Below are positions 6,691 through 29,072 of a stretch of 42,029 bases of DNA, piece after piece. Under the pieces are notes generated by a model. It was not told the origin of the DNA. It was given only the letters and a program-made list of their open reading frames with translations, and did not search any database. Each line of letters opens with the position of its first letter. Position 1 is the stretch's first letter. This stretch comes from Armatimonadota bacterium (GTDB lineage: Bacteria > Armatimonadota > DTGP01 > JAKQQT01): contig JAKQQT010000507.1 of assembly GCA_029564025.1 (NCBI GenBank), positions 1-42,029 on the forward strand. The letters are read 5' to 3'. The position numbers were made by a program, and so were the translations under genes.

Positions 6691-6699
6691 CCTCGTTGC

Positions 6700-7290: not shown

Positions 7291-7327
7291 TGTTGTGATT
7301 CCGCGCGGCTCCGATGTATCCGATTAC

Positions 7328-7355
7328 TCAGACTCCCGGCGCCGCGAAAACCTTC
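7328..7355 (-). promoter_or_regulatory. Candidate ECF-type (autoregulatory) promoter
   Basis: The minus strand reads GAAGGT-N16-GTCTGA, ~37 nt upstream of the sigma start. It resembles the GAACTT-N16/17-TCTGA promoters of RpoE/AlgU-type ECFs. Confidence 0.35.
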
Positions 7356-7358
7356 AAA

Positions 7359-7937: not shown

Positions 7938-7950
7938 GGCAACGGGGCTT

Positions 7951-10323: not shown

Positions 10324-10485
10324 GGTCATTTCCCCTTTCGTGTACGTCATCAAGTTAGTTCACAGCGGCCAGCGCAGTCGAGCGTTGCGGACCGGCGCAA
10401 CCGGAGGCGTCCGCGGGCGTCCAAGTATGATGGGCGGATGTTCTTTGCTCTTATTTTCCGTCAAAACACAGGGGGTTGAAAGAAC

Positions 10486-11508
10486 ATGACACGGAATCGC
10501 TGGATGATGGCGGCAGTCGCGTTGTTTGCCGTTCAGGCCTTGAGCGTGGCGGAGACATCGAAAAACGTTTTGCTGATCGGGTGGGACGGCGCGCGCCGCG
10601 GTCACGTGGAGAAAATGCTGGAAAGGAACGAACTGCCGACGCTGGCCGCGTTGAAAGCCGAAGGGAAGATGGTGAACATCAACGTCACCACCGGCGCCAC
10701 CGACACGAAAGCAGGGTGGAGCCAGATTTTGACCGGGTATCACCCAAACACCACGGGTGTCCACTCAAACGGGAAGTACCAGCCAATCCCGAAGGGATAT
10801 ACCATTTTCGAGCGCGCTGAAAAAGCGTTTGGAGACGACAAGGTGTACACGGCGATGATCGTGGCCAAGTCCGGCCACGTGGACGCCGCGGGCCCGGTGA
10901 AAGTCCCGTATCAGCGCTGGAAGACGCGAAGCGAGAAGGGTCCGCTGAAGAACCTGCCGGAACAGGCGCGACTGCGGCGCAACGGCATGAAGGTCATCCA
11001 GGAAGGCGCTCGGCGTTTCGTCGTGGCGCCGGGCAAGCCGTACTTCAACGCGAAGGATGGAATGGACCTTTTTGTGAACGGACTGAAAACGGACGAGGCC
11101 GTTTCAACGAGGACGCTGTCCGAAATCGAGAAGAACAAGGACAAGCGGTTCCTCATTTTCGCGCATTTCGCCCGGCCGGACCACGACGGACACCAGTTCG
11201 GCGAGGGTTCGAAGGAATACAGCGCCGGCTTGAAGGAAGACGACGAGTGGACCGGCAAGATCATCAAGCGCCTCAAGGAGATGAACCTCTACAAGGACAC
11301 CACCGTGTATGTAGTGGTGGACCACGGTTTTGACGTCGGAAAGACCACCCACCGCAACGCGCCCTACGTGTTTATGGCGACCAACGACACCGAGGTCCGG
11401 CGTCCGGGCGATCGGGCGGACATCGGTCCCACCGTCCTTAAGCGCCTGGGTATCGATATCGCCAAACTGGAGCCGCCGCTTTTTGGGAAGCCGCTGACTG
11501 AACGCTGA
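10486..11508 (+). CDS. Secreted alkaline phosphatase / nucleotide pyrophosphatase superfamily protein
   Basis: Signal peptide; LLIGWDG, TDTKAGWSQILTG (Thr nucleophile region), PDHDGH and VVDHG metal-ligand motifs. Confidence 0.8.
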   Translation: MTRNRWMMAAVALFAVQALSVAETSKNVLLIGWDGARRGHVEKMLERNELPTLAALKAEGKMVNINVTTGATDTKAGWSQILTGYHPNTTGVHSNGKYQPIPKGYTIFERAEKAFGDDKVYTAMIVAKSGHVDAAGPVKVPYQRWKTRSEKGPLKNLPEQARLRRNGMKVIQEGARRFVVAPGKPYFNAKDGMDLFVNGLKTDEAVSTRTLSEIEKNKDKRFLIFAHFARPDHDGHQFGEGSKEYSAGLKEDDEWTGKIIKRLKEMNLYKDTTVYVVVDHGFDVGKTTHRNAPYVFMATNDTEVRRPGDRADIGPTVLKRLGIDIAKLEPPLFGKPLTER

Positions 11509-11584
11509 AAATAAACAGCAAAAATAGCCGCGCCGATGTGGCCGCGTCGCGAATCCGGACGTACAATTAAGGCGTCGGTGACAG

Positions 11585-11617
11585 GGGGTTTCCGAATCAC
11601 CGGAAGCCCCTTTTTTT
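11585..11617 (+). terminator. Rho-independent terminator (possibly part of an attenuator)
   Basis: GGGGTTTCCG-aatcac-CGGAAGCCCC followed by T7. Confidence 0.85.
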
Positions 11618-11687
11618 GCTGGTCTTTCGCCGGGTCCTTCGCCGGGCTGTCTGTTGCTATCGGAGGAGACGGTGGAAGGGGGATTCC

Positions 11688-14600
11688 ATGGTATACCACA
11701 AGCGTTATCTTCTGACTCTTTTGCTCTTCCTGATCCCGGCGTCTGCGTGCCTCGCCGCAACATACACCGTAACATCGGCGGACGAAGACGGCCCCGGCAC
11801 GCTGAGGCAGGCCATTACCGACGCCAACGGCGACTCGGAAGCCGACGTCATCGCCTTCAGCCTGCCGCCGCCATACGAAATCAGCGTTTCTACAAACCTC
11901 CCGGCGATGTCCCAGCCGGTTACCATCGACGGCTCGACACAGGCCGGTTTCACCGGACCGCCGCTTGTTTCCCTAGTCGGAGCGGGCGCCTCCGAAGGGC
12001 TTGTCATCGAAACCGGTGGCTGTCAGGTCAGATGCCTGAACATCCGGAACTTCACCGGCGCCGCAATCACCATCCGCTGGGGCGCGGAGAATTCAGTTAC
12101 GGGTTGCTGGCTCGGTCTGGACGCATCGGGCGAGAACGCCGTGCCCAACAACCGCGGCATTATTCTTCAATGGGGAACAACCGACAACACCATCGGCGGA
12201 TTGTCCGGCGGCGACCGGAACGTCATTTCCGGCAACACGGAAACCGGGATCCACATCACCGACTGGAGCACGTCACGCAACAAGGTGCTGGGTAACATCA
12301 TCGGTCTGAACGCCGCCGGAACGAAGGCCGTTCCCAACCGGTTGGGAGTCGCCGTTTGCTGTGACGCATCAGACAATGTCATCGGCTCCACCGCGGTCGG
12401 GGGACGGAACATCATTTCCGGCAACTATGAGGCCAATATCCAGTTCGACGACCGACTGGGCGGCAACGTCATCAGCGGCAATTACATCGGCACCACGGTC
12501 GACGGCCTGGAGGTGCCGATCGACGCCGGTATGACGAAAGGGGTTGAACTCTGGAACAGTGTCGGGCAGATAATCGGGCCGGGTAACGTCATCGCTGGTC
12601 ACACGGAAGCCGGCATCCGCATCGGTGGTGTGTATTCCGTGAACAACAGAATCATCGGCAACTGGATTGGCGTCAAGTCGAACGGTACCGAGCCTCTGCC
12701 GAACGGCGACGGCATCAAGGTTGATAACAACGCCCACGACAACACCATCGGGGGAACCTCCGAGAGCACCCGGAACATCATCTCCGGAAACTCCCAGGTC
12801 GGTGTCCGCCTCAACGGGCCGGGCGTCACCGGCAACGTTGTCTGCGGCAACTACATCGGCCTGGATCCGGTCGGTGAAAACGCTGTCAGGAACGGCGAAT
12901 ACGGCGTGGCTATCCAGGACAGGGCGTCCGGAAACACCATCGGAGGCACACAATCCGAGGCGCGCAACGTTATTTCCGGAAACCAATCGGACGGTGTGCG
13001 CCTGGAAAACCCGGGAACGACGGCCAACGTTGTATCCGGAAACTACATCGGCCTCGACGCCACGGGTTCATTCGCTGTGTCCAACGAGGGAACCGGCATC
13101 AGCGTTACGGACCAGGCTTCTCGAAATACGTTCGGCGGAACTGCTTCTGGAACGCGGAACTACATTTCGGGCAACAAGGGCTGTGGAATCTTCATCGACG
13201 GTATCGGCACCACGTCAAATGTCGTTCAGGGCAATGTCATCGGCCTGGAAAAGACGGGACTCAGCGCCGTGCCTAATGAAAACCAGGGTGTGGTTGTTGC
13301 GAACGGCGCGGTGGATACGCTGGTGGGTGGAACCGCGGCGGGCGCAGGAAACATCATCTCCGGCAACAATTCCCACGGTATCGAGGTTTCCGGCCGCGAC
13401 ACCGCGCGCACCATCGTTCAGGGAAACACCATCGGCTTGAATGTACCGCGCAACGTCACCGTCGGCAACAACGGTAACGGAATCATGGTCAGTTGGGAGA
13501 CGAGGTTCAACCTCATCGGTGGAACAGCGCCCGGCGCAGGCAACCTGGTGACCGGCAACAGTTCCGGCATCCACGTCGAGGATGCGCACGACAACGTGGT
13601 TCAGGGGAATCTCATCGGAACCGACCCGACCGGCCGCCAGAACCTCGGCGCGGGCTGGGCCGGCGTGAACATCGCCCAGGGCTCGCAGAGGAACATCATC
13701 GGAGGCGCCGGGGCCGGTGAGCGCAACATCATCGTGGGCGGCTGGTCGGGCGTGGCCCTCGTTGATTCCGGCACGGCGCACAACGTCGTTCGCGGAAACC
13801 ACATTGGCGTGGACATCACCGGGAATATCATCCTGGGCGGCGGTGACCATGCCGTGAACATACGCGAAGGCGCCCACGAAAACGACATCGGGGGACCGGG
13901 AACCGGCGACGGCAACATCATCGCTGGCTACGGAGGCAACGGTGTCGTGCTGGCAGGTAACGTGAGCCCGGTGCGGAACCGCATACTCCGCAACTCCATC
14001 CGAAACCACAATCTGCTGGGAATCGACCTGGAACCTGCCGGCGTGACGCGAAATGACGCCCGTGATAGCGACACCGGACCCAACATGTTGCAGAACTATC
14101 CGGTACTGACGTCGGCCGCCTACAGCGCAGGCAATATAGACATCACAGGCACGCTGAACAGTGTTCCGTCCACCACATTCCGGCTGGAATTCTTCAACAA
14201 CGCCCTTTACGTTGCGGGAGCCTATGGGCAGGGTGAGGTGTATCTCGGCTCGCAGAATGTGACCACCGACGCCTTCGGTAACGCGGCGTTCAACGTGTCA
14301 TTGCCCGCGCCTTCCAGGCCGGGCGCCGGGGTCACCGCGACGGCCACGGATTCCGCCGGTAACACGTCGGAGTTCAGCCTGTCCGTAAAGGTCGCCGACC
14401 TGCCCGTCGAGAGCAGTCTCGTGGTGACCAACGTGTACGATTCCGGCGAAGGCTCACTGCGGCAGGCGATACTGGATGCCAACGCCAGGGCCGGCCTGGA
14501 CACCATCACCTTCAACATCCCCGGCGGCCTCCAGCAGATAGCACCCGTTTCACCACTGCCACCAGTCACCGAATCGGTGGTCATTGACGGCACAACACAA

Positions 14601-17600
14601 CCTGGCTTCACCGGAACGCCGTTGATCGTCCTCGGCGGATGGTCCAGCGGAAACTGCGACGGCCTGGTCATCCAGGCGGACTCGTGCGTCATCAAGGCGT
14701 TGAATATCGAGGGATACGCGCGGGCCGGCATCGTTCTGGAGAGCGGCGGAAACACCGTAACCGGATGCCAAATCGGTATCGACCCGACCGGGATATACCG
14801 GTCACCGTGCACGCCGGGTATTCTGGTGCAGGGTGATAACAACATCATCGGCGGCTCCACGGCGGCGGAGCGGAACGTTATCTCGGGCAACAACAGTGCC
14901 GGAATTCTCCTGGACGGCGCCGCCGGCACGATGGTCACCGGCAACTTCATCGGCCCTGACCCGAGCGGTATGCTCGAGATCGCCAACCTGGACTCGGCTG
15001 TGCAGTTCCTCAACGGCGCCAACAACAACGTTATCGGCGGCCTGGGTGCCGGGCAGGCGAACCTGATATCCGGCAACTACGCGGCGGGTGTCGAACTGCG
15101 CGGCCCGGATGTGACACTCAACACCATCCAGGGCAATTACATCGGCGTCGACGTGACCGGGGTGGAGCCGCTGGCCAACCACTGGCTGGGCGTCCGCCTG
15201 TGTTCGGGAGCCCATCATAACACGGTGTCGAAGAACGTGATATCGGGCAACTGGCACAACGGCGTCGAGATTGCCGATACCGGTTCCGACGGTAACTCCG
15301 TCCTGCAGAACGTCATCGGATTGTGCGTGATGGGTGATGCGGCAATTCCGAACAATGCGGGTGTTGTGGTTCGGTACGGCAAGGACGCTGTGGTTGGCGG
15401 AAACACCATCTCGGGCAACATTAACAGCGGTATTGAACTGAGTGAGACTTCGGCCAACCGGGTTTATGGAAATCTGGTCGGCACGGACGTTACGGGTAGT
15501 TTGCCTCTGGGCAACATGGCTCACGGTATTGTCCTTCTTGGAGCAAGCCACGACAACGTCATCGGCGGACTGGCTCCGGGCGACGGCAATATCGTCTCTG
15601 CCAGCGGTTCCAGCGGTATTCAGTTCTACACCGAAGGAAACCGGGACAACCTGGTGCAGGGCAACATCATCGGGTTGGACATCACCGGCACGAAGCCGCT
15701 GGGCAATGCCCGTGAAGGCATCAGTCTGTGTTGCGGGGCTTCAAACAACACCATCGGAGGTACGGTGGCGAGCGCTCGCAACGTCATCTCCGGCAATTAC
15801 GGCGCCGGCGTCGGCGATTGGGCGACAAACACCCGTATTCAGGGTAACTATATCGGAACCGACGTAACAGGCGCCACCGCCGTTGGCAACGCTTACCAAG
15901 GCGCATACCTGAACTCCACTAACCCGATGGTACTCAACAACGTGGTGTCCGGCAACATGGGAGGAGGTATCGTCCTGCAGAACTCCAGCGGCGGTGTGGT
16001 GCAGGGAAATCACGTGGGGACGAATGCGGCGGGAACGGCCGCCGTCGGCAATTACTGGCAAGGCATCGGCCTGTTCTGGGCCAACAGCAACCACGTCATC
16101 GGCGGCAGTCTCCCCGGCCAGGGAAACCTGGTGTCCGGCAACTTCGGAAACGGCGTCCAGGCCAGTGAACTCAGCATCTCCAACGTTCAAATCCTCGGCA
16201 ACCGCATCGGCGTTCAGGCCGACGGCGTATTGCCTCTGCCGAACCGTCAGAACGGTATCGAGTGCTTCAGTGGCGTCACCGGCGTCACAATCGGCGGAAC
16301 GGCCGCGGGCGCCGGAAACACCGTCGCGTTCAACGGCGAGCGGGGCGTGTGGATACGCGACGGCTACAACGGCTCCTGCACAGGAATCGCCGTGCGCGGC
16401 AACTCAATTCACAGCAACACCCTCCTCGGTATCGATATCGGGCCGGAGGGTGTTACGCCCAACGATAACCTGGACGCCGACACCGGGTCGAACGGATTGC
16501 AAAACTTCCCGGTGCTTACGAAAGCCACGCTGTCAGGCGGTCAGGCGACCGTCACCGGCACGATGAACAGCAAGGCGAACACTGTTTACGCCGTCGACTT
16601 CTTCTCGGGACCCGCCTGCACCGCGCCGTGCACTCAACAGGGCGCTGTGTACCTTGGTTCGACAAGCGTGACCACGGATGCCGCCGGTTCGATACCCGTC
16701 AGCGCCACGGTTCCGTGCGCCCTGCCGGCAGGCAGTGTCATCACCGCCACGGCGACTTCTCCCACGGGCGACACCTCGGAGTTTTCAGCCGGGGTGAATC
16801 TGGTGGACTTCAAGCCCGTTCTGGCTGTGACCAATGTGGCCGTCGATGATTCGCTTGGTAACAACAACGGCGTCATCGACTACAACGAGTGCGTGAAACT
16901 CACGGTCACCTTCGGCAACACCGGGGCGACGGACGCAACCGGCGTGACGACGGGGATGAGCGTGACGACATCGGGAGTGACGGTTGTCGACGCCTCGGCT
17001 CCGGTGCCGGATATCCCGGCCGGGGGTACGCGAGCCAACACCACTCCGTACAAGATCGGCGTCTCGCCGTTATTCGTATGCGGAACACCAATCACCGGTA
17101 CGATTCAGGTGACGTGCGGGCAGGGCGTGTACAACGTCCCATTTGCCGTCGCCACCGGCACGGTTTCGTCGCCGATCACATACACGGCAACGGGACCGGT
17201 TGCCATACCGGACGGCGACCTGGCAGGCGTTGACCTACCAATCAGCGTTTCCGGACTCAGCGGTACTCTGGCGGATGTTACGGTAGCGCTGTACATCAGC
17301 CACACGTGGGATTCCGACCTGGACATCAGCCTGATCGGGCCGGACGGCACGAAGGTGGCGCTGGCGTCGGGCAGGGGAGGTTCCGGAGACAAGTTCGGGG
17401 CGGACTGCCCGGCCGGTTCGAACGATACCATCTTCGACGACACGGCGGCGAACTCCATCGCAACCGGAACGGCCCCGTTTACCGGATCCTTCCGTCCGGA
17501 ACAACCGCTCTCCGCGTTTTACGGCAAGGCGGGCGCGGCGGTGAACGGCACGTGGAAATTGCACGTGGTTGATGTCGTATCGACGGACGCGGGAACGATC

Positions 17601-17915
17601 GAATGCGCCTCTGTGACCATTCGGGAGAGAACTTGTTCGGACGGCGGCGGAACCTGCTCCGGAACGTTCATCTACGGCGACGCAAACGGAGACGGACTGG
17701 TCAATGCGGACGACGTGAAAGCGCTGTTGAAGGCGGTGGGCGGTCTGGCGCGCACGAAGCCGATGAACGGAACGGCCGATATCAGCATCGCCGCCGTTGA
17801 CACCGCACCGAAGCCCTCCGCCGATCCACGCGGATTCGGCGATGGAAAGCTGACTATGGCGGACGTGGCGCGGTTGATACGCCATCTGAACGGCAAGGAG
17901 CCGGTTTACCCGTGA
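11688..17915 (+). CDS. Giant secreted protein (2075 aa): two tandem parallel beta-helix modules, Ig-like domain, proprotein-convertase P-domain, C-terminal dockerin-like domain
   Basis: ATG 11688 behind AAGGGGGA, then a signal peptide. Two modules each start VT...G[TS]LRQAI.DAN and end QN[YF]PVLT...TATAT...TSEFS, with many GNxIG/RNVISGN repeats. P-domain: AIPD...ISHTWDSDLDISLIGPDG...GTWKLHVVD. Tail: YGDANGDGLVNADDV...GDGKLTMADV. Confidence 0.88.
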   Translation: MVYHKRYLLTLLLFLIPASACLAATYTVTSADEDGPGTLRQAITDANGDSEADVIAFSLPPPYEISVSTNLPAMSQPVTIDGSTQAGFTGPPLVSLVGAGASEGLVIETGGCQVRCLNIRNFTGAAITIRWGAENSVTGCWLGLDASGENAVPNNRGIILQWGTTDNTIGGLSGGDRNVISGNTETGIHITDWSTSRNKVLGNIIGLNAAGTKAVPNRLGVAVCCDASDNVIGSTAVGGRNIISGNYEANIQFDDRLGGNVISGNYIGTTVDGLEVPIDAGMTKGVELWNSVGQIIGPGNVIAGHTEAGIRIGGVYSVNNRIIGNWIGVKSNGTEPLPNGDGIKVDNNAHDNTIGGTSESTRNIISGNSQVGVRLNGPGVTGNVVCGNYIGLDPVGENAVRNGEYGVAIQDRASGNTIGGTQSEARNVISGNQSDGVRLENPGTTANVVSGNYIGLDATGSFAVSNEGTGISVTDQASRNTFGGTASGTRNYISGNKGCGIFIDGIGTTSNVVQGNVIGLEKTGLSAVPNENQGVVVANGAVDTLVGGTAAGAGNIISGNNSHGIEVSGRDTARTIVQGNTIGLNVPRNVTVGNNGNGIMVSWETRFNLIGGTAPGAGNLVTGNSSGIHVEDAHDNVVQGNLIGTDPTGRQNLGAGWAGVNIAQGSQRNIIGGAGAGERNIIVGGWSGVALVDSGTAHNVVRGNHIGVDITGNIILGGGDHAVNIREGAHENDIGGPGTGDGNIIAGYGGNGVVLAGNVSPVRNRILRNSIRNHNLLGIDLEPAGVTRNDARDSDTGPNMLQNYPVLTSAAYSAGNIDITGTLNSVPSTTFRLEFFNNALYVAGAYGQGEVYLGSQNVTTDAFGNAAFNVSLPAPSRPGAGVTATATDSAGNTSEFSLSVKVADLPVESSLVVTNVYDSGEGSLRQAILDANARAGLDTITFNIPGGLQQIAPVSPLPPVTESVVIDGTTQPGFTGTPLIVLGGWSSGNCDGLVIQADSCVIKALNIEGYARAGIVLESGGNTVTGCQIGIDPTGIYRSPCTPGILVQGDNNIIGGSTAAERNVISGNNSAGILLDGAAGTMVTGNFIGPDPSGMLEIANLDSAVQFLNGANNNVIGGLGAGQANLISGNYAAGVELRGPDVTLNTIQGNYIGVDVTGVEPLANHWLGVRLCSGAHHNTVSKNVISGNWHNGVEIADTGSDGNSVLQNVIGLCVMGDAAIPNNAGVVVRYGKDAVVGGNTISGNINSGIELSETSANRVYGNLVGTDVTGSLPLGNMAHGIVLLGASHDNVIGGLAPGDGNIVSASGSSGIQFYTEGNRDNLVQGNIIGLDITGTKPLGNAREGISLCCGASNNTIGGTVASARNVISGNYGAGVGDWATNTRIQGNYIGTDVTGATAVGNAYQGAYLNSTNPMVLNNVVSGNMGGGIVLQNSSGGVVQGNHVGTNAAGTAAVGNYWQGIGLFWANSNHVIGGSLPGQGNLVSGNFGNGVQASELSISNVQILGNRIGVQADGVLPLPNRQNGIECFSGVTGVTIGGTAAGAGNTVAFNGERGVWIRDGYNGSCTGIAVRGNSIHSNTLLGIDIGPEGVTPNDNLDADTGSNGLQNFPVLTKATLSGGQATVTGTMNSKANTVYAVDFFSGPACTAPCTQQGAVYLGSTSVTTDAAGSIPVSATVPCALPAGSVITATATSPTGDTSEFSAGVNLVDFKPVLAVTNVAVDDSLGNNNGVIDYNECVKLTVTFGNTGATDATGVTTGMSVTTSGVTVVDASAPVPDIPAGGTRANTTPYKIGVSPLFVCGTPITGTIQVTCGQGVYNVPFAVATGTVSSPITYTATGPVAIPDGDLAGVDLPISVSGLSGTLADVTVALYISHTWDSDLDISLIGPDGTKVALASGRGGSGDKFGADCPAGSNDTIFDDTAANSIATGTAPFTGSFRPEQPLSAFYGKAGAAVNGTWKLHVVDVVSTDAGTIECASVTIRERTCSDGGGTCSGTFIYGDANGDGLVNADDVKALLKAVGGLARTKPMNGTADISIAAVDTAPKPSADPRGFGDGKLTMADVARLIRHLNGKEPVYP

Positions 17916-17924
17916 TAACACGGA

Positions 17925-17957
17925 AGGAAGGGGGCATTTGACCTCTGCCCCCTTCCT
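17925..17957 (+). terminator. Perfect 12-bp hairpin after the giant gene (probable terminator)
   Basis: AGGAAGGGGGCA-tttgacctc-TGCCCCCTTCCT, with only a weak U-tract (GTTGT). Confidence 0.55.
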
Positions 17958-17967
17958 GTTGTAAAAT
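17938..17967 (+). promoter_or_regulatory. Sigma70-type promoter of tRNA-Ala
   Basis: TTGACC (17938-43)-N18-TAAAAT (17962-67), 9 nt before the tRNA 5' end. Confidence 0.65.
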
Positions 17968-17976
17968 CTGTGTGCT

Positions 17977-18052
17977 GGGCCTGTGGCGCAGTTGGGAGCG
18001 CGCCTCAATGGCATTGAGGAGGCCAAGGGTTCGAATCCCTTCAGGTCCACCA
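17977..18052 (+). tRNA. tRNA-Ala (anticodon GGC)
   Basis: 76-nt cloverleaf: acceptor GGGCCTG/CAGGTCC with G3:U70, anticodon arm CCTCA-ATGGCAT-TGAGG, T arm AAGGG-TTCGAAT-CCCTT, encoded CCA. Confidence 0.97.
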
Positions 18053-18064
18053 CCGGACTGTATC

Positions 18065-18094
18065 GACCCCGCCCGGAAGGGCGGGGTCTTTTTT
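18065..18094 (+). terminator. Rho-independent terminator of tRNA-Ala
   Basis: GACCCCGCCC-GGAA-GGGCGGGGTC followed by T6. Confidence 0.92.
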
Positions 18095-18112
18095 GTTTTG
18101 GAGGTTCGCACG

Positions 18113-19069
18113 ATGCGGGAAATCCAATTTGCGGGAAACCCGACGTTCCTGGTCACCGGCGGCGGCGGTTTCATCGGCTCGCACATAGCCGAAACGCTGG
18201 TCGGCATGGGGCATACCGTGCGCGTGCTGGATGACTTCAGCACCGGACACATGTCCAACATCCCGCCCGGGTGCGATGTGATCGAGGGCAGTATCACGGA
18301 TTTGGAAGTCGTGCGCTCCGCCGTGGACGGCATCGATTACATACTCCACCAGGCGGCTATTCCCAGTGTGCCGCGCAGTGTGAAAGACCCTCTGGCTTCG
18401 CACAACGCTAACGTTGACGGCACGCTGAATCTTCTCCTTGCCGCGCGCGACGCGAAAGTCCGCCGTCTTGTTTACGCATCGTCCTCCAGTGTCTACGGAG
18501 ACATGCCGACATTGCCGAAGGTCGAAACGATGCCCCCGCGCCCGAAGTCGCCGTACGCTTTGCAGAAACTGACCGCCGAGGAGTACTGCCGCATTTTCTT
18601 CGATGTGTACGGGCTTGAGACAGTGAGCCTGCGCTATTTCAATGTCTTCGGTCCGAGGCAGGATCCGAAGAGTTACTACACCGGCGTCATCGCCAAGTTC
18701 GCCACGGCACTGCTGACAGGGCAGACGCCCACCATCTTCGGAGACGGTTTCCACAGCAGGGACTTCACCTTCGTCAGCAACAACGTGCGCGCCAATCTGC
18801 TGGCTTGCACCGCGCCCGCCTCGGCCGCCGGGCAGACGATGAACGTCGCGTGCGGCGACCGAATCACGCTCAGGCAACTGCTGGACAGCATACAGGAGAT
18901 TCTGGGCACCGGCGTTCAGCCGGAATACGGCCCCGAACGTGAAGGGGACGTGCGCGACAGCCAGGCGGACATCAACAAGGCGCGGGAACTGATCGGTTAC
19001 GAACCGGCGGTCGGCTTCATCGACGGTCTTCGAACGACGATGGAGTGGTACCGAAAAACGCTGGCCTGA
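18113..19069 (+). CDS. NAD-dependent nucleotide-sugar epimerase (UDP-Glc/GlcNAc 4-epimerase, WbpP-like)
   Basis: LVTGGGGFIGSH, HQAAIPSVPRSV, YASSSSVYG, YALQK (YxxxK), LRYFNVFGPRQDP, RDFTFV. Start ATG 18113 after GGAGG; the ORF-track start runs through the tRNA. Confidence 0.92.
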   Translation: MREIQFAGNPTFLVTGGGGFIGSHIAETLVGMGHTVRVLDDFSTGHMSNIPPGCDVIEGSITDLEVVRSAVDGIDYILHQAAIPSVPRSVKDPLASHNANVDGTLNLLLAARDAKVRRLVYASSSSVYGDMPTLPKVETMPPRPKSPYALQKLTAEEYCRIFFDVYGLETVSLRYFNVFGPRQDPKSYYTGVIAKFATALLTGQTPTIFGDGFHSRDFTFVSNNVRANLLACTAPASAAGQTMNVACGDRITLRQLLDSIQEILGTGVQPEYGPEREGDVRDSQADINKARELIGYEPAVGFIDGLRTTMEWYRKTLA

Positions 19070-19165
19070 CCGGTTGTGCGCGGCGTGTCGTCAAAGACGC
19101 TATAGTTATAGAAAAGCCGCCTTTCATAAGTTGCCATTGCCAGCACGGCGGCCGACCTACGCTCA

Positions 19166-20692
19166 ATGATGAACCGAAATCTGTTTGGCGGCCTCATTCT
19201 GGCCGTGTCCCTCATGGTCTTTTCAACCGCGTGTGTCCGCGCCCAGATCATCGCAGACCGCGTGTACGGTCAACCGGACTTTGCCACCGCCCTGCCGGGC
19301 AACTCCGCCGTTCCGCCCAATGCGCGCATCAACCTGCCGTATGACGTGGCGGCCGGGCCTGAAGGTGTGTACATTTCGGACAACTATTACCACCGAGTCC
19401 TTTTCTTTCCGGGCGAGGCCGTGGAAGCCACGGCTGTTTACGGCCAGCCGAACTTCGAAAGCCTCAGCCCCAACAACGGCGGCGTAAGCGCCAACAGCCT
19501 GAACTACCCCTGGGGTGTGGCGCGCGACAGTTTCGGTGTCTACATTGCGGACGGCAACAACAACCGAGTGCTCTTCTACCCGCACGGTTCCACCACCGCC
19601 ACGCGTGTTTACGGCCAACCTTCGTTCACCTCAAACAAGGCCAACTACTACGGTTTGAACGAGAACTCGCTGTTCGGCCCGTCCTTCCTGGCTACGGACG
19701 GGACAGGCGGCCTGTACGTGGCGGATACCGGCAACAACCGCGTTCTCTTTTTTCCGCCGAACAGCACCACGGCGACGAAGGTCTGGGGCCAGCCGAAGTT
19801 CACGACGAACTACCAGGGCGCCAGCGATACCGCGGTATCTTCCCCGCGCGGGATTGCGGTCGACTCGGAAGGCCTTTATGTGGTGGATTACAATAACCAC
19901 CGGGCGTTGTTCTTCCCGCACGGTTCGACAACCGCCACACGCGTCTACGGACAGCCGGATTTCACATCGTTTTTCCCGAACGATGGAGGATGCGGACCCA
20001 ACACCCTGCAACAACCGCTGGGATGCGCCGTGGACGAGACGGGATTTTATGTGGACGACTATCTGAACAGCCGGGCGCTGTTCTGGCCGCACGGCAGTAA
20101 TGTCGCCTCGGTGGTTTACGGTCAGACGGATTTCACCACGGTGCGCCTTAACTGGAATGGAGTCACGCCGTACGGGTTCTACGCGCCGCGCTCGGTCACA
20201 ACGGATGCCACCGGCGTTTATGTTTGCGATTTTGGCGGACGGGTGCTGAGGTTTCCGAAAACCACAACCCCGATGGCGGCGAGTGTTTCGTTCTTGACGG
20301 CTCCAGTTGGCGCGCGCGCGGGGCAACCATTTGAGGTCCAGCCTTCGGCTGTTGTACGTTATTCCAACGGCGCGCAAGCGACAAACTACACAGGTAATGT
20401 GCGCATACGCATCAAGCCGGGTTCCGGTCCGTCGTGCGGAACGTTGCTCGGAACGACCACCGTGTCGGCGGTTGCCGGAATCGCGACGTTTACCAACCTC
20501 GCCATCGACAAGCCCGGAACATACGAATTGATGGTCACCACGGCCACCTTTCCCATTCCGGAAACGGTGTCTGTCACAATTGGCGCGGCGCCGGGAGAAT
20601 CGCTGGCAGGTGATGTGAACGGAGACGGTTTCTTCAATGTCGCCGATGTAGCCGCCACTCTGAAAATCGCCGCGGGGTTGTCAACACCATGA
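19166..20692 (+). CDS. Secreted NHL-repeat beta-propeller protein with Ig-like domain and a single dockerin-type repeat
   Basis: Signal peptide; about six repeats of YxxDxxNNRVLF.P...ATRVYGQPxF; Ig-like GIATFTNLAIDKPGTYEL; tail GDVNGDGFFNVADVAATLKIAAGL. Confidence 0.85.
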   Translation: MMNRNLFGGLILAVSLMVFSTACVRAQIIADRVYGQPDFATALPGNSAVPPNARINLPYDVAAGPEGVYISDNYYHRVLFFPGEAVEATAVYGQPNFESLSPNNGGVSANSLNYPWGVARDSFGVYIADGNNNRVLFYPHGSTTATRVYGQPSFTSNKANYYGLNENSLFGPSFLATDGTGGLYVADTGNNRVLFFPPNSTTATKVWGQPKFTTNYQGASDTAVSSPRGIAVDSEGLYVVDYNNHRALFFPHGSTTATRVYGQPDFTSFFPNDGGCGPNTLQQPLGCAVDETGFYVDDYLNSRALFWPHGSNVASVVYGQTDFTTVRLNWNGVTPYGFYAPRSVTTDATGVYVCDFGGRVLRFPKTTTPMAASVSFLTAPVGARAGQPFEVQPSAVVRYSNGAQATNYTGNVRIRIKPGSGPSCGTLLGTTTVSAVAGIATFTNLAIDKPGTYELMVTTATFPIPETVSVTIGAAPGESLAGDVNGDGFFNVADVAATLKIAAGLSTP

Positions 20693-22209
20693 ACTTCCGA
20701 ACAGCATCTACCGCTCTTGCCGTGCTTATCTTCGCCGCACCGGGGCAAGCCCTGGTGATGCCCGACCGCGTTTACGGACAACCGAACCTGAACGTGGTGA
20801 TTTCCAACAACCCGGACCTTCCACCCAATGGCCGGATGGTGTCTCCCAGGGGTGTCGCGGTAACCGAAGAGGGTGTTTACATCAGCGATGAGATGCTGAA
20901 TCGCGTGCTGTTTATGCCGGGTGGCTCTATCCTCGCCTCGCGGGTGTACGGACAGCCGGATTACTCAAGCACGTTTTACAACCACTACGGGCTCAATGCG
21001 TCCAGCCTGTCCCGTCCGGCAGAGGTGGAAGCCAACGATTCCGGCGTTATCATCGCGGACTGGCGAAACTCGCGCGCTCTTTTTTACCGTCCCGGTGAAA
21101 CCACAGCCAGCCGGGTATTCGGCCAACCGGGCTTTGGTTCCTCATGTCCCCAGTGGGATGGCATTTCTCCCAACAGCCTCACGTATCCTGAAAACGTATC
21201 GCTGGACGCCAACGGAGGGGCCTACGTAACTGACTCGTTCATCTGCCGGGTGCTGTATTACCCGCCGGGCAGTTCGTGGGCCACTCGTGTGTACGGCGCC
21301 GAAACCCTTTACAGCATGTTCACGGGATCGAATGAGAAGTGGATGAACAGCGCGGCAGGAACTGCCGTTTCGGCCGATGGGGTATACATTGCCGACCGCG
21401 CAAACCACCGGGTGCTGTTTTATCCTCACGGAAGCCAGTCGGCCACACGCGTCTACGGGCAACCGAACTTCACCGCGCACGTCGTGAACAACGGCGGAAT
21501 CAGCGCCAACTCGCTGTACTACCCGACGGATGTTGCCCTCGACAAGGACGGTGTGTACATCAGCGACACATACAACAAGCGCGTGCTGTTCTACCCCGGA
21601 ACCAGCACCACGGCTACCATCGTATACGGACAACCGAGCCTGAACACGGTGGTTAACTCGTCAGCGCCGGGAGACGGTATCCTCTCCGATGCCCGCGCAA
21701 TTGCGGTGGACGAATTCGCCGTCTACGTTGTGGAAACTTACCGCGCCCGGGTGGTCCGGTACCCCAAGGTGGGTGTGAATGTGCCAAGATCGTTTGAGTT
21801 CACGGGCCAACCCGGAACGGCCAAGGCAGGGGAATCCCTTTCGGAATCACCATTGGTCGTTGTAAGGAAAGCAGACGGAACCATCGCCTCGGACTTCAAC
21901 GGATTCGTCCGTGTGAAACTTGCCTCAGGTGTTGGACCTTCGTGCGCCAAACTGCTCGGAACAACGAAGTTTCCGGTGATAAACGGTGTCGCCGTGCTTG
22001 ATGATGTGCGGGTGGACACACCGGGAACGTATAAGCTGACCGCCAGTGTGGGAACGCTGACAGAGCACGACAGCGCGGAGTTCACCATCACCGCGCCGGA
22101 CCACGCGTTCAACCCGGCGGACGCCGACCACAGCGGATCCGTGACGATCACCGATGCGGTTCTGCTGTTGCGCGCATTCGCCGGTCTTGACGGCCTGACG
22201 AACGGCTGA
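20689..22209 (+). CDS. Secreted NHL-repeat beta-propeller paralog with Ig-like domain and a single dockerin-type repeat
   Basis: ATGA overlap with the upstream paralog; same RVLFYP...ATRVYGQP repeats; GVAVLDDVRVDTPGTYKL; tail ADADHSGSVTITDAVLLLRAFAGL. Confidence 0.85.
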   Translation: MNFRTASTALAVLIFAAPGQALVMPDRVYGQPNLNVVISNNPDLPPNGRMVSPRGVAVTEEGVYISDEMLNRVLFMPGGSILASRVYGQPDYSSTFYNHYGLNASSLSRPAEVEANDSGVIIADWRNSRALFYRPGETTASRVFGQPGFGSSCPQWDGISPNSLTYPENVSLDANGGAYVTDSFICRVLYYPPGSSWATRVYGAETLYSMFTGSNEKWMNSAAGTAVSADGVYIADRANHRVLFYPHGSQSATRVYGQPNFTAHVVNNGGISANSLYYPTDVALDKDGVYISDTYNKRVLFYPGTSTTATIVYGQPSLNTVVNSSAPGDGILSDARAIAVDEFAVYVVETYRARVVRYPKVGVNVPRSFEFTGQPGTAKAGESLSESPLVVVRKADGTIASDFNGFVRVKLASGVGPSCAKLLGTTKFPVINGVAVLDDVRVDTPGTYKLTASVGTLTEHDSAEFTITAPDHAFNPADADHSGSVTITDAVLLLRAFAGLDGLTNG

Positions 22210-22353
22210 TCCTTCCCCAACAAGCCTGCGCCTCCCGACGCCGTTTGTTCGCGCGGCTTTCGACATGCCTTATCATGAAGATGATTCCATGCGCCCGGAG
22301 GCTTTGTAAGGAGCATACTGGCGCACCGTCACACGGCATGGAGGCAAGTTCAC

Positions 22354-25300
22354 ATGCGACGCACCGTTACGTTCACCTGGCGCCTGGCGCTTTTGTCCGC
22401 TCTGGGCATGATGCTGATGGGACAATCCGCCCGCGCTCAGACATGGGCCGACCTCTATTACAGGAACCGTCTGCCTTTCACAATCAACAACACATCCGGA
22501 CGGGCCTTCGCCGCGTCCGAACTGGCAACCGCAACTATTCCGGCATCGCTGACCGGGGACCTCGTTCGGCCCGACGGTTCGGACATTGCCGTATATTACG
22601 ACCAGACTCCCCTGCCAACCAAGGCCATGCCGATGGGCGGCTGTGTGAAGGTTGTGTTTCCCCTGCAGTCAGCGCTGGCCACGGGTACTTCCCAGTCGGG
22701 GTACACCCTTTATTTCAATGGCTACACGGGTTTCACCCCTCCGGCCGTACCGGCCGGAATCGTCTCCTATGATTTCCGCGATGGCAATCTGCACGGTTGG
22801 AAGAGCCTTCAGGATCCCGCCAATACGGGCCAGTCGGGCTCCGATGTGGTAATCGCCCCGGATCCGCAGGACGGCGAAACCTCGATGCTGTTGCAGGCAA
22901 CCAAGTACCATCACCCGATGGCCTATGCGGACGAGATGACTCCCGTGGGCGACGCGACGATGTACTTCGCCGGCCGAGCTTACGAGGGGCAGAAGGAAGT
23001 TGCGCCGATTCAACGATTCAATACCCAGGTCCTGATGGACTCGGAAGGCGCACAGTACGTAACCGGCGCTGATATCCCGGGTGTTGGTATTGCATTGGAC
23101 TCGTACGGTTCCTATGCCATGGGAATCATGACTACCCTGGGCGCGGAAGAGGGGACGCCGGCCCGGCGGCATCCGGGCCCGGAGATAATCATCGAGGGAT
23201 ACCCGTACACCGTTAACTCGCCAAACGTGCAATACGCGACCGTTGCGACGCGGTTGAAATCCGGAACCACCTGGTTCGCCGCGGACTGGTGGCAGGCGCA
23301 GAACAGGTTCGGAAACAGCGATCCTGTTGCCGGGGGATACCGGTTGAGCGTCAACACGGCGTCCAAGATCGGCGTTCAACCAATGCCGGAAGGCAAATTG
23401 GCGCTGATGCAGTACTACACCCCGGTCTACGTGAAGTGGATGTGCCTCGTACCCGGCGGTTGGTCGGACGACGTAACGACAACCACGGGAAGCGTGGAAT
23501 CCGCCCCCGGATTGCCGCCGGGCGCGGCTGTGATCCGCGGGATTGTGTACGATTCAACCGGCGGACCGGTGTTCACAATTGCGGACGCCACCGTTACCAT
23601 CAAGGACCAGAGCAACAACACCGTTGCCACCCTTACCACGGATGTAAACGGAAAATACGAGGCACTGGTTACGGCGACAGCCACACCGCAAATCTTCACG
23701 ATATCCGCCGTGAAGGGTGAGGCCACAGGCAGTGTCCAGCAGAACGTGACGGAAAGCGTGGAATACCAGATCGACCTGGGTATAACGTATCCAAACTTCG
23801 TCACGGGAATCATCAGCGACCCGCTGGGACGGCCCATTTCGGGAGCGGCGGTCGGATTCATGCTGGACGGCGGTCCGTACGTTTACACCGGAGCCAACGG
23901 CGTTTACGTTATACCGGTTCCCATCGGAACAGCCGTCCTTGGCGCACACAAGGATGGGCGCCTGATGGCCGGTCCGAAGTGGGTGAACACGGCTCGCGGC
24001 ACGGTGACCCAGCACATGACGAGTTTCCCGGCGATTACCAATATCATCGCGGGTATGACACCCAATCCGGTGCCGGGAGGAACAGGAACCGGCAACCTGA
24101 CTGACGGCATGTACAGCACGTACTGGGAGAGCGGTTCGGTGGCCGGGGTATCGCCCACAACGCCGATTCGCATCTCATTCCCGCTGACAAATGCCACGAT
24201 CACCGAAGTGGTCGTCCACTGGAAGAACCATCCGACAGCCTGGCATATCGAACTGACCAACCAGGTGACGAATTCCAGCGGACGAAATCCTTACAACGAT
24301 ACCCGTACGTACTACAACGCGGGTGAGAACGGACCGATCGAGCGCGGTGGATATACACCGCCCGGTTCTTCAGACCGCACCGTCGTACCAATGAAGACCG
24401 CGCGCGTGACCGGCGTGAGCATGCTGTCCATCGTTATCACCGGCGTGGCCGACAGCAATCCGGTATCGATATATGAAATCGAAGTCCGCAAGCCGGAATC
24501 ATCGCTGGAAGACGCGGCGGCGGCCTTGATGGTTGCCGCGGGATTGATGCGCGCTCCGACAGACATCGATATTCAAACCCGTTGGGCATCCTATCGGGAA
24601 TCGAAGAACATCGATGTCGCCACGGCCGTGCGCCTTGCCAGGGACACGCCACTGGAATACCGTGCGTTGCGGGTTCTGGCCATCAACTACGAACCGATTA
24701 TCGAGTCTGAAGGCAACAAGAAAGTACGCTTGGTGTTCGGGTGGAACAACCCCATCACGAATAATGAGAACCACCGCAAGGATATGGAACTCGCCAGCAA
24801 CGGTTATCTGCGGATTTACATGTTGCCACAGTTCATCCTGGACGAATGGCCTCTGCACCTCGATGGAACGCGCTACACCGACGCCCAGTACCTGGCGGAA
24901 ACCCGCGCGGGGAACTGGACGAAGGTTGGCGGAGACTACAACGCCATCATCCGGCAGTTCGACCTGGTGCGCCGCGTTGACGTGGGGGACGTGGACGAAA
25001 TCTGGTTGCAAGGCATACCGGGCCTCGGCTGGTGGGAAACCACCATGGCCGGCAAAAACGCCTACTGGTGCAACTCCGGACCCGTGCCCGGCCAGACCGG
25101 CAACCGCCTGTTTATCCTCAGTGGATTCAACTACGAACGCGGCAACGACTGTATGCTTGAAGATTGGGGGCACCGCTCCGAAAGTATCCTCGGCTTCAAG
25201 GTCTACGGCGGATGGAATGCGGCCAGCGAACGCACGCTGTTCGACAAGTTCACCAGGTTCGAGAAAATCACACCGGGCAAGGCTTCGTGCGGCAACGTTC

Positions 25301-25587
25301 ACTATCCGCCGAACGGGACATCCGACTACGACTTCGCGAACACGACATACGTGTCCAGCGATGCGGACGACTGGCTGAACTACCCGAACTATCCGAGCGA
25401 GGGCGCGCCCCGGAAGATGATCAACCGAAGCGCCTGGGCGACACCGTACACCGGCGACTACCACCGCAACTACCACATCTGGTGGTTCAAGCGCTTCCCG
25501 CACGTGGCCGGCGTAGCCACCGACGGGCGACAGCACAACTGGTGGAAGTACGTGGTGTTCCTGAACGAACAACCCGAAAGCCGCTAG
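22354..25587 (+). CDS. Secreted 1077-aa multidomain protein (DUF2341-like N-terminus, carboxypeptidase-regulatory-like domains, discoidin/CBM32-like domain, degenerate dockerin, C-terminal zincin-like domain)
   Basis: Signal peptide ending ARA; WADLYYRNRLPFTINN...PDGSDIAVY; IRGIVYD...IADATVTI...TTDVNGKY; VTGIISD..GRPISGAAV; NLTDGMYSTYWES; LEDAAAALMVAAGL...IDVATAVRLAR; GFNYERGNDCMLEDWGHRSES. The domain names are pattern-based. Confidence 0.75.
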   Translation: MRRTVTFTWRLALLSALGMMLMGQSARAQTWADLYYRNRLPFTINNTSGRAFAASELATATIPASLTGDLVRPDGSDIAVYYDQTPLPTKAMPMGGCVKVVFPLQSALATGTSQSGYTLYFNGYTGFTPPAVPAGIVSYDFRDGNLHGWKSLQDPANTGQSGSDVVIAPDPQDGETSMLLQATKYHHPMAYADEMTPVGDATMYFAGRAYEGQKEVAPIQRFNTQVLMDSEGAQYVTGADIPGVGIALDSYGSYAMGIMTTLGAEEGTPARRHPGPEIIIEGYPYTVNSPNVQYATVATRLKSGTTWFAADWWQAQNRFGNSDPVAGGYRLSVNTASKIGVQPMPEGKLALMQYYTPVYVKWMCLVPGGWSDDVTTTTGSVESAPGLPPGAAVIRGIVYDSTGGPVFTIADATVTIKDQSNNTVATLTTDVNGKYEALVTATATPQIFTISAVKGEATGSVQQNVTESVEYQIDLGITYPNFVTGIISDPLGRPISGAAVGFMLDGGPYVYTGANGVYVIPVPIGTAVLGAHKDGRLMAGPKWVNTARGTVTQHMTSFPAITNIIAGMTPNPVPGGTGTGNLTDGMYSTYWESGSVAGVSPTTPIRISFPLTNATITEVVVHWKNHPTAWHIELTNQVTNSSGRNPYNDTRTYYNAGENGPIERGGYTPPGSSDRTVVPMKTARVTGVSMLSIVITGVADSNPVSIYEIEVRKPESSLEDAAAALMVAAGLMRAPTDIDIQTRWASYRESKNIDVATAVRLARDTPLEYRALRVLAINYEPIIESEGNKKVRLVFGWNNPITNNENHRKDMELASNGYLRIYMLPQFILDEWPLHLDGTRYTDAQYLAETRAGNWTKVGGDYNAIIRQFDLVRRVDVGDVDEIWLQGIPGLGWWETTMAGKNAYWCNSGPVPGQTGNRLFILSGFNYERGNDCMLEDWGHRSESILGFKVYGGWNAASERTLFDKFTRFEKITPGKASCGNVHYPPNGTSDYDFANTTYVSSDADDWLNYPNYPSEGAPRKMINRSAWATPYTGDYHRNYHIWWFKRFPHVAGVATDGRQHNWWKYVVFLNEQPESR

Positions 25588-25656: not shown

Positions 25657-26661
25657 CTATCGGATGCCCAACGCCTCGGCGAGCGAATCGATGCGACGGA
25701 GTTCGGTCTGCAGATGCCCGGTCGATGCGCCGTCGAGGTAGTGCGGCATCTGGAGAAGACGGACGGACCACTCGTAAGCCGCGGCGGCCAGGCGTATCCG
25801 GTTCATCGGTACGTCCTGACCGAGGCTTTTGCCGAGTTTCTGATGGTAGACAATCAGCATATTGTCCAGCGGCACGCGCCCGTCCGGGTGATTGACACGC
25901 AGGTACATGAAGGCGATGTCCTCCGGGCCGCGTCCGATGCGCACCCCCTGCCAGTCTGTCCACACGAAAACGCCTGTTCCGTCCTGTCTCACGTTCCCGA
26001 TGTGGCAATCGCCGTGTATCAAGGTTTCGGGCAACGCCTCCAGGTGAGCCTGTGTGGCGGCGACGCTATCGATCCGTTTATCGATGATCTGGAGGCGTTC
26101 GGTGGTCAGAATGTCCTTGAAATGCGCCTTGCCGGCGAGGTGGTTCCAGCAAAGCCGGGCGTGTTGCGGCATGTCCTCCGCCTCGATGAATGAGGGTGTG
26201 CCGGAGAAGCCCAGCGCGCGAAGTTCATCGCCGCGGTTCCATAAGGCGGCGTGAAAGCGGGCCAGATCCTCGGCCGCCCGAAGGAAGTGGTCCCGTGTCC
26301 AACCCTCCAGGGGCGGAGCGGCGGGACAATCCTCCATCAGCACGGCGGTTATCTGCTTCTTATCCAGGCAAACGGCGTCCACGCGGGGTACGCGAACCGG
26401 CATACGTTCAGCAAGCATCCCGTAAAACAGCGCCTCGCGCCGGGCGCCCTCCGGATTTCCCTTCGAATCACCGGTCCGCTTCGCCTTCAGGATGCGCGTG
26501 GAACCATCGGCAAGATAGACGCGGAATCCGCCGGTGCCCCAGGGATTTTCCCCGATTACGTCAATGCGGTGAACGGATGCGGACTGGATGCCCAGCACAT
26601 CGAGAGCCTGCGAGGCAATATCGACGGAGGTGGAATGGCTGTTGGGTTCGGCGTTGCTCAT
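25657..26661 (-). CDS. Aminoglycoside phosphotransferase / choline-kinase-like family protein
   Basis: ILKAK, REALFY, LMED, LARFHA, TLIHGDCHIGN (Brenner motif), DWQ. Probable start ATG 26661. Confidence 0.85.
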   Translation of the reverse strand: MSNAEPNSHSTSVDIASQALDVLGIQSASVHRIDVIGENPWGTGGFRVYLADGSTRILKAKRTGDSKGNPEGARREALFYGMLAERMPVRVPRVDAVCLDKKQITAVLMEDCPAAPPLEGWTRDHFLRAAEDLARFHAALWNRGDELRALGFSGTPSFIEAEDMPQHARLCWNHLAGKAHFKDILTTERLQIIDKRIDSVAATQAHLEALPETLIHGDCHIGNVRQDGTGVFVWTDWQGVRIGRGPEDIAFMYLRVNHPDGRVPLDNMLIVYHQKLGKSLGQDVPMNRIRLAAAAYEWSVRLLQMPHYLDGASTGHLQTELRRIDSLAEALGIR

Positions 26662-26726
26662 TGCGATTTGCCCGTATGCGTTCAGCGGGTTTCTGAGCGA
26701 AAGGGAGTAATAACGGTGTTCACTCC

Positions 26727-28955: not shown

Positions 28956-29072
28956 AGTTATAGTAACGGTAGCGCCTGTGTATGAATGCCCGGCGTTGCT
29001 TTGCCTCACTCATTATGAAGGCACAGGGCGCCGGTAGTTCAACGCCTTGGTGATACGGAGGGTAGTGGTTTC

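Follow-up and report, generated by a model that had tools for sequence, protein, structure and literature searches.

Dockerin-derived tags across a class of uncultured Armatimonadota, with candidate cohesin partners in the same genomes

What might dockerin-like segments be doing on secreted proteins of an uncultured member of the Armatimonadota that are not cellulases? The question is raised by a contig of 42,029 nucleotides (JAKQQT010000507.1 of assembly GCA_029564025.1), here called the window, in which the region 11688-25587 holds five protein genes, all on the plus strand, and one tRNA gene. Four of the five encode proteins with signal-peptide-like N-termini (by direct reading and not by a predictor, each opens with basic residues, goes on to a hydrophobic core and has an A-x-A-like site): a giant of 2075 amino acids (aa), two paralogous proteins with NHL beta-propellers, NHL1 and NHL2, and a protein of 1077 aa, P0004. 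An original prediction, made from the letters of the window, had found a dockerin-like segment in each of these four co-oriented genes and proposed that together they make one local surface complex, held by a lineage-specific tag. The genes, their orientation and their segments are as it described them, and so is the restriction to one lineage; the local complex is not borne out, and the interesting unit appears to be a genome-wide system, the four-gene complex being less special than it seemed. The host genome (G000) comprises 3.87 Mb in 756 contigs, is 92% complete, and belongs to an organism whose placement in the Armatimonadota follows from the names on the P0004 homologs; it was compared with two genomes of the same family (G001 and G002) and with five others (G003 to G007), which make up eight genomes of the class.

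In a dockerin of type I a 12-residue calcium loop and the helix after it form one repeat, and two such repeats in tandem make up a compact fold of three helices and two calcium ions. Docking between cohesins and dockerins is best known from the cellulosomes of Gram-positive anaerobes, and dockerins and cohesins outside cellulosomes are an established category. Non-cellulosomal dockerin- and cohesin-like modules are reportedly the subject of Peer, Smith, Bayer, Lamed and Borovok (2009, FEMS Microbiol Lett 291:1). The explanation that we hold to be probable here, if well short of certain, is a class-wide, non-cellulosomal cohesin-dockerin docking system, of which the four window proteins would be ordinary members with four variants of the plug. 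Two amphipathic helices ('D-x3-ALRIAAGL' and 'D-A-x2-IARKVAGL') would form a small plug; the plug would bind cohesin-type beta-sandwich modules on other secreted proteins, and that contact would hold cargoes of adhesin-like and enzyme-like character together in assemblies outside the cell or bound to its envelope.

By sequence comparison all four window segments are related to dockerins. Set against the two-repeat pattern of Pfam Dockerin_1, the giant has a canonical loop 1 and a degenerate repeat 2, NHL1 and NHL2 have one repeat each, and P0004 has two helices without canonical loops. The giant (11688-17915) begins with a signal peptide, continues with two blocks of parallel beta-helix and a P-domain of the proprotein-convertase type, and has the dockerin at its C-terminus (Pfam Beta_helix 4.1e-17, NosD 3.4e-13, and P_proprotein 7.8e-09 at residues 1862-1972). 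Its dockerin module (17673-17912) is of a form that we call type B, in which loop 1 and helix 1 are followed by an insert of about 30 residues and then by the second repeat. With hmmscan the full Dockerin_1 profile (1-57) aligns with residues 1996-2068 at 16.7 bits (cut-off 22.9), and in the genome search the giant's two matches in one frame total 32.1 bits; the 'complete pair' described earlier is thus sound as to the full profile and loop 1, and overstated as to the repeat that comes after the insert. The giant's tail was grouped with 19 tails of the genome that retain loop 1.

NHL1 (19166-20692; 508 aa) and NHL2 (20689-22209; 506 aa, 39% identical to NHL1, its start overlapping the NHL1 stop as ATGA) are each composed of a signal peptide, an NHL beta-propeller whose repeats are confirmed by Pfam, an immunoglobulin (Ig)-like domain and a tail. 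Each tail (20609-20689 in NHL1 and 22117-22206 in NHL2, with 32 and 27 bits respectively against a repeat model built from the genome) contains exactly one loop-helix repeat, which stands immediately 3' of the Ig-like domain and ends 2-5 residues ahead of the stop. No second repeat, such as a frameshift or read-through might reach, lies downstream of the NHL1 or NHL2 stop in any frame, and no helix-1-like motif was seen upstream of the Ig-like domain in either protein. On Dockerin_1 the NHL1 tail scored alone reaches 15.8 bits (cut-off 22.9), and hmmscan lists no match to that family for the full NHL1, NHL2 or P0004 proteins. More telling is a profile built on both tails along with three from orthologs: its first 20 rows in the PDB are dockerins or dockerin-bearing enzymes (best 4fl4_A, E 7.8e-10; range to 5.3e-04), it aligns with both repeats of each PDB dockerin, and calcium-binding proteins and calmodulin-type EF-hands enter the list only from E 7.1e-04, so that the possibility, raised at the outset, of tails resembling neither dockerins nor EF-hands can be set aside for these two. 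The orthologs (42-55% protein identity) form a tandem pair in G002 and are represented by one gene in G001, and the single repeat is kept in 3 of 3. Because the repeat is kept in orthologs, matches PDB dockerins and has no hidden second copy, the tails would seem to be conserved half-dockerins and not artefacts of truncation. A word-index search with the Ig-like domain and tail of NHL1 brought up the Ig-like domains of many proteins, and the tail only in the window's own cluster.

P0004 (22354-25587) carries its segment internally (24499-24645, residues about 716-765), as helix 1, linker and helix 2 without calcium loops. The pattern runs helix 1 'DAAxAxRIAxG', linker 'APxDxNAFxRWNA' and second helix 'IxxxDAVxLxxD', and is shared by the 10 homologs whose sequence reaches across it; some N/D ligands of the second loop are kept in homologs and lost in the window copy. 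Compared by hhalign with an alignment of 16 tails of the commonest form in the genome (type C, described below), the segment gives a probability of 97.2% and E 2.9e-11, in agreement with its earlier description as an internal, helix-only version of the tag.

How far does the tag extend beyond the window? For the genome-wide count that the original prediction had suggested, Pfam Dockerin_1 was used together with a model of the single repeat, made from 44 of the genome's own loops. Dockerin_1 has 49 matches in G000 at E<=1, with 12 ORFs (open reading frames) over the cut-off alone and 9 more rows when in-frame matches are summed; the single-repeat model finds 77 ORFs at >=8 bits; and the combined census comes to about 83 tagged ORFs, roughly 2% of genes, with the module in nearly all cases at the extreme C-terminus. 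By reading, a few tails have both loops intact, about 19 have loop 1 with a second repeat of varying quality, and about 7-9, all C-terminal, are true single-repeat tails. The majority are type C, in which helix 1 lacks its loop ('D-x3-ALRIAAGL') and is followed by 'RLDV/RLNV' and then by a second helix, often ending '...IARKVAGL-D/E-x-N-P-stop'. The best PDB match of the type C profile is a dockerin (2ccl_B, E 0.0039), Dockerin_1 matches 4 of the 16 members of the alignment, and a scan of the 16 tails against NCBIfam gave no relevant family. Since the invariant columns of this alignment (G14, D42, R48 and G52) lie in the helices, while by direct reading the canonical D-x-D-x-D-G second loop is kept by 3 of 16 members, the conservation would fit a protein-binding surface better than a calcium site. 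An Ig-like domain stands directly ahead of many tails, full and single, and this arrangement recurs in G000, G001 and G002. It resembles, by domain order alone, the XDoc dyads, in which an Ig-like X-module is packed on a type II dockerin and aids stability and binding. Elsewhere in the genome (G000:C528, about 10000-11800, plus strand) there are two adjacent paralogs of 435 and 443 aa in which the N-terminal part holds several dockerin-like loops and the part after it is a domain common to both, without assigned function.

The type C form is a property of the class. Its profile matches 80, 114, 149, 54, 42, 99, 27 and 57 times in G000 to G007, in that order (the best 150 candidates of each genome being scored, and the counts in the three genomes that reached this bound standing for at least the number given). 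At E<=1e-3 it is found in 8/8 genomes of the class and in 0/33 genomes of the phylum's other classes; when the sample is widened to 151 phylum genomes, at E<=1e-6 and with the best 43 candidates scored per genome, it occurs in 8/8 of the class and in 1/143 of the others, there as a single match. These counts support the view that the tags are dockerin-derived and specific to the lineage. In the class as a whole the tagged share of proteins is 1-3%.

If these are plugs, where are the sockets? No cohesin lies within the window, as the original prediction had noted, and no protein of G000 exceeds the Pfam Cohesin cut-off (24.1). The best weak match is a small secreted protein of 264 aa on contig C677 (about 19.2-19.4 bits), which has a C-terminal dockerin too. 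In its AlphaFold2 model the beta-sandwich core has a pLDDT (predicted local distance difference test) of 70-84, and in a fold search with this model all of the rows listed (about 40, to rank 48) are cohesins, among them 5k39_A at E 8.1e-10 and TMt 0.64. Its orthologs score 21.5 bits (P0042) and 26.9 bits (G001) on Pfam Cohesin, the latter over the cut-off. Its dockerin has 5m2o_B as best full-length PDB match (residues 192-259, E 9.2e-06) and is of type B like that of the giant. An exhaustive search with this protein returned 25 matches, and because only 3 of them span the cohesin part, its family is small and the alignment behind its model shallow. Three paralogous small proteins, two on C491 and one of 288 aa on C677, are laid out in a related way, a beta-rich module at the N-terminus being combined with a dockerin; a word-index search with a C491 member found only itself, and PDB profile searches with the cohesin-like proteins gave matches to the dockerin parts only. 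All four cohesin-like proteins of G000, then, end in dockerins, and they are the candidate sockets of the docking system. According to the structural model, cohesin modules are thus encoded in G000 outside the window; docking on a protein partner is plausible.

In G001 and G002 there is one gene of each cohesin-like type, side by side and adjoining the gene of a propeller-like protein. This family locus (L038, G001:C24:36796-40607; L039, G002:C111:4935-8678; and G000:C677:3-2008) has three genes on one strand: that of the propeller-like protein, which is secreted and of about 490 aa, then one for a cohesin-like module with a dockerin, and then one for a cohesin with a dockerin; in G000 the C677 contig ends within the second gene.

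The more distant members of the class are better supplied. G003 to G007 have 4-22 Pfam cohesin matches each, and G003, G005 and G007 encode scaffoldin-like proteins, some with three cohesin stretches and a C-terminal dockerin, which resemble adaptor scaffoldins and might act as such; in one protein of a class relative a cohesin is fused to a PQQ-type propeller. Because the class genomes carry both dockerin-type tags and Pfam-level cohesins, the class as a whole has, by sequence, both plugs and sockets. No multi-cohesin scaffoldin-like protein was found in G000, G001 or G002 (one Pfam match each; G000 being 92% complete in 756 contigs), so that the earlier suggestion to look for cohesin, S-layer homology (SLH) and scaffoldin genes is answered in part, with a cohesin fold on C677, SLH proteins on other contigs and no scaffoldin in G000. 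An ORF of 5365 aa on C56 was considered as a scaffoldin and rejected, its weak 'cohesin' matches falling in DUF11/SdrD_B repeats; with repeats of DUF11, SdrD_B, CarboxypepD_reg and similar beta-sandwich types and a lamin-tail domain, it looks adhesin-like (G000:C56:4198-20292, minus strand).

Several observations weigh against a docking system of this kind. Binding of tags to cohesins, the pairing of particular tags with particular cohesins, the location of the complexes and any need for calcium are inferred. Each of the four window segments falls below the Pfam dockerin cut-off when scored alone, and in the model of P0004 the three helices predicted in its segment (718-728, 738-748 and 755-768, within 715-769) have pLDDT <50. 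On the cohesin side, the pLDDT of the C677 model averages no more than 57, on an underlying alignment of 4 sequences; the C677 family profile finds only dockerins in the PDB, through its C-terminal part, and no cohesin by sequence; and the three paralogs, with no Pfam cohesin match, are candidates by layout. The numbers are also uneven, with one weak or borderline Pfam cohesin match per genome in G000, G001 and G002 against 80-150 tails, and no cohesin protein in G000 has a recognisable envelope anchor, the SLH proteins being on contigs other than C677 and C491. When the C677 module (residues 24-192) was entered with its 4-row alignment and the giant's tail (window:17655-17912) as a single sequence, complex prediction scored 0.17 against a mark of 0.32, a result that counts neither way.

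Could the tags instead be an export or envelope-sorting signal specific to the class (a sorting signal being the other option of the original prediction), read by machinery other than cohesins in the manner of the C-terminal domains of the type IX secretion system (T9SS) or of PEP-CTERM tails, with the cohesin-like proteins just cargo? The pattern is one that sorting tags show: dozens to more than 100 unrelated signal-peptide proteins per genome, a module at the extreme C-terminus, a conserved end ('...ARKVAGL-D/E-x-N-P-stop') and one lineage. The ratio of tails to cohesin candidates, more than 20 to 1 in the family of G000 to G002, and the presence of the tag on G000's own four cohesin-like proteins point the same way. 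The module itself is of another kind, however. By direct reading it has no transmembrane stretch or basic tail, and the features of the PEP-CTERM/exosortase type (motif, transmembrane helix and basic cluster) are absent, the tails being amphipathic, ending '...GL-D/E-x-N-P' or similar and having no hydrophobic span. The NCBIfam models of sorting domains have no hit on the 16 tails or on the four window proteins, the one hit with a PEP-CTERM name being ScyF on the NHL1 propeller only, at 33 bits against a cut-off of 350. The C-terminal domain of the T9SS is a beta-sandwich of about 80-100 residues; the tails here are helical and of 25-80 residues, and Pfam gives no hit to the T9SS family Por_Secre_tail (PF18962) on the four window proteins. 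Moreover, P0004 carries the module internally, at a position conserved in its homologs, which is incompatible with a C-terminal signal, and some proteins (on C528 and C749) have copies at the N-terminus. With homology to a known protein-docking module, and cohesins in the class, docking offers the simpler link, and we rate a sorting signal as unlikely.

A further alternative gives the tails no partner and sees them either as structural caps stabilised by calcium or as remnants in decay, the repeats of NHL1 and NHL2 being leftovers of a lost dockerin. A lone loop-helix of 24 residues cannot make the dockerin fold, the NHL2 loop (D-A-D-H-S-G) is off consensus, and Pfam is blind to the NHL2 and P0004 segments. 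There is also a precedent of sorts, in that the available part of a report on Clostridium clariflavum, in which 75 type I dockerins were aligned, describes a protein, Clocl_2271, with a single-repeat, N-terminal dockerin and no assigned function (PMC4582956). Decay is hard to square, however, with single repeats kept in 3/3 orthologs in two other genomes, including both tandem members in G002, or with an NHL1 tail that at 32 bits is among the best-scoring repeats of the genome. A calcium cap fits poorly because in the type C tails it is the helices that are conserved and the calcium loops that degenerate, whereas a cap should show the reverse. We therefore regard caps and remnants as quite improbable. 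Unlike the Clocl_2271 dockerin, an N-terminal oddity whose conservation is not shown in the part of that report available, the single repeats here are C-terminal, number about 7-9 in the one genome and, in the NHL proteins, are kept in orthologs.

How, then, might a single repeat work within the docking system? It might pair with another in trans, bind by a single helix, or draw support from the Ig-like domain ahead of it, in the manner of XDoc dyads. The most explicit version would have the single repeats as working half-dockerins, two of which pair in trans to rebuild the two-helix plug, NHL1 with NHL2 or, where the genome has one gene, two copies of the same protein; cohesin docking would then need dimerisation and, within a class-wide network where most dockerins have lost their calcium loops, might not need calcium. 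We consider this specific scheme quite doubtful.

Are the four genes nevertheless a unit? They lie within 14 kb on one strand, and only one other place in the assembly has, like the window, at least three tagged ORFs within 15 kb, though two of the window's three counted members are the tandem paralogs, which overlap by ATGA and stay together in G002. Between the giant and the other three stand a tRNA-Ala (GGC) gene (17977-18052) with its own promoter-like site (17938-17967), a strong terminator-like hairpin 3' of it (18065-18088, plus strand; 10 pairs, 9 of them G-C, then a T run) and the fifth protein gene, for a cytoplasmic NAD-dependent sugar epimerase/dehydratase without a tag (18113-19069). 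In the related genomes the orthologs of P0004 (G002:C35 and G001:C80) and of the NHL proteins (G002:C43 and G001:C17) are on different contigs, and no relative of the giant or of P0004 is among the ORFs listed on the stretches around the NHL genes of G001 and G002. Throughout G000 the clustering of tagged ORFs is weak: adjacent pairs no more than 6 kb apart number 11, and 1000 random placements gave 6.0 +/- 2.3 of them, with 13 as the maximum. Because of the intervening tRNA gene, terminator and epimerase gene, the separate contigs of the orthologs and the weak clustering, the neighbourhood is probably not a functional unit, and that the four genes are one co-regulated locus building a specific multi-protein surface structure is, among some 83 tagged ORFs genome-wide, very improbable.

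The class-wide docking system that we prefer would have its closest known parallels among the clostridial type I dockerins, which are the best PDB matches of both the NHL tail and the type C profiles (the Xyn10B dockerin, 2ccl_B/1ohz_B, and that of a GH9 enzyme, 4fl4_A). They share with the present tags a 12-residue loop of the D-x-N-x-D-G type followed by a helix, and a C-terminal position on signal-peptide proteins. In contrast to them, most copies here have lost one or both canonical loops and those of the window proteins are below the Pfam cut-off; and, unlike in the clostridial cellulosome, the cargoes in the window are beta-helices, propellers, a CBM32-like domain and a domain without family, and not glycoside hydrolases. 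The group I dockerins of Ruminococcus flavefaciens (5m2o_B) are the closest full-length match of the C677 dockerin, of type B like the giant's; organism and cargoes are different, and the giant's inter-repeat insert is longer. With the non-cellulosomal dockerins already known, the present set has in common the occurrence on secreted non-cellulases of a non-cellulolytic lineage and the small proteins with both cohesin and dockerin, but it differs in its 80-150 modules per genome in the family's three genomes, in the dominance of the form lacking loop 1 and in the single repeats conserved between orthologs. In the available text of a preprint on giant proteins of the Omnitrophota, dockerin helices flank a CBM35-like barrel within one repeat unit (bioRxiv 10.1101/2023.11.21.568195), which is similar to the present case in having non-canonical dockerin helices beside a beta-sandwich in an uncultured lineage; NHL1 and NHL2, however, have no helix upstream of the Ig-like domain. 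The restriction of a dominant, loop-less form to one class appears to be new; so do the conservation of half-dockerins across orthologs and the finding of cohesin modules in that genome and its class. The literature searched, with subscription journals mostly outside the search, yielded no account of a dockerin set spanning a class of the Armatimonadota.

In this uncultured class, then, 1-3% of the proteins bear a tag derived from dockerins, cohesins are encoded in the same genomes, and no tagged protein of the window is a cellulase. Should the predicted binding be true, it would reveal how secreted proteins of adhesin-like and enzyme-like kinds are organised in a little-known lineage, protein engineering would gain new docking pairs, possibly independent of calcium, and the conserved half-dockerins would be a natural test of the minimal dockerin.

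As to the cargoes, the earlier list of beta-helices, a P-domain, NHL propellers and a CBM32-like domain, with no glycoside hydrolase, is upheld (Pfam and NCBIfam find no glycoside hydrolase family in the giant, NHL1, NHL2 or P0004), while its peptidase-like domain is not. P0004 consists of a signal peptide, an N-terminal beta-rich region, CarboxypepD_reg-like domains (CarboxypepD_reg being its only Pfam family), the CBM32 or F5/8 type C-like domain (residues 560-716, 24031-24501), the dockerin-like segment and a conserved C-terminal domain (residues 770-1077, 24661-25584). A fold search with the model of residues 560-716 gave 4zxe_A at Z 15.4 (root-mean-square deviation 3.0, 125 residues aligned) and many further CBM32 rows, and PF00754 is carried by the shorter P0004 relatives P0013, P0014, P0018 and P0020; in a Foldseek search with the whole protein the list was taken up by matches of the repeat domains to Ig-like and other beta-sandwiches; the domain-level search resolved 560-716 only. 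The C-terminal domain has no Pfam match, and near it in the ESM Atlas there are only clusters without a name. The closest named cluster, M64, is at 0.78, which is chance level, and with Pfam empty the label 'peptidase-like' was rejected. Invariant columns of the alignment include D881, E882, N926, E928, R929 and G939-H940-R941-x-E943-S944, and the domain, enzyme-like and without family, is probably that of a secreted enzyme. It is also found standing alone, in proteins of about 350-380 aa (G005:C209, G002:C3 and G001:C63), and in a Planctomycetota protein, P0016, which has a dockerin-like end of its own; in a distant homolog, P0019, a T9SS tail (PF18962) replaces any dockerin-like segment. A search of genome contigs confirmed no relatives of P0004, and the G002 ortholog (G002:C35:59502-62663, minus strand) has one in-frame TGA within its reading frame.

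The tagged genes are bounded by terminator-like hairpins on the plus strand, one upstream of the giant gene (11583-11612; a 12-bp stem, then a T run) and one 3' of P0004 (25618-25639). The listed ORF 17972-19069 has a spurious start at 17972, since it spans the tRNA-Ala gene, and the epimerase most likely starts at the ATG at 18113. Upstream, on the minus strand (5425-10353), are genes for a zinc-finger/tetratricopeptide-repeat, anti-sigma-like protein (5425-6690), an extracytoplasmic function (ECF) sigma factor (6700-7290) and a GH78-type alpha-L-rhamnosidase (7951-10353), none of which has a dockerin-like tail. Downstream, an ORF of 760 aa on the minus strand (26727-29009), without Pfam match, overlaps the 3' part of an APH-type kinase ORF (25657-27036), so that one of the two starts is probably wrong.

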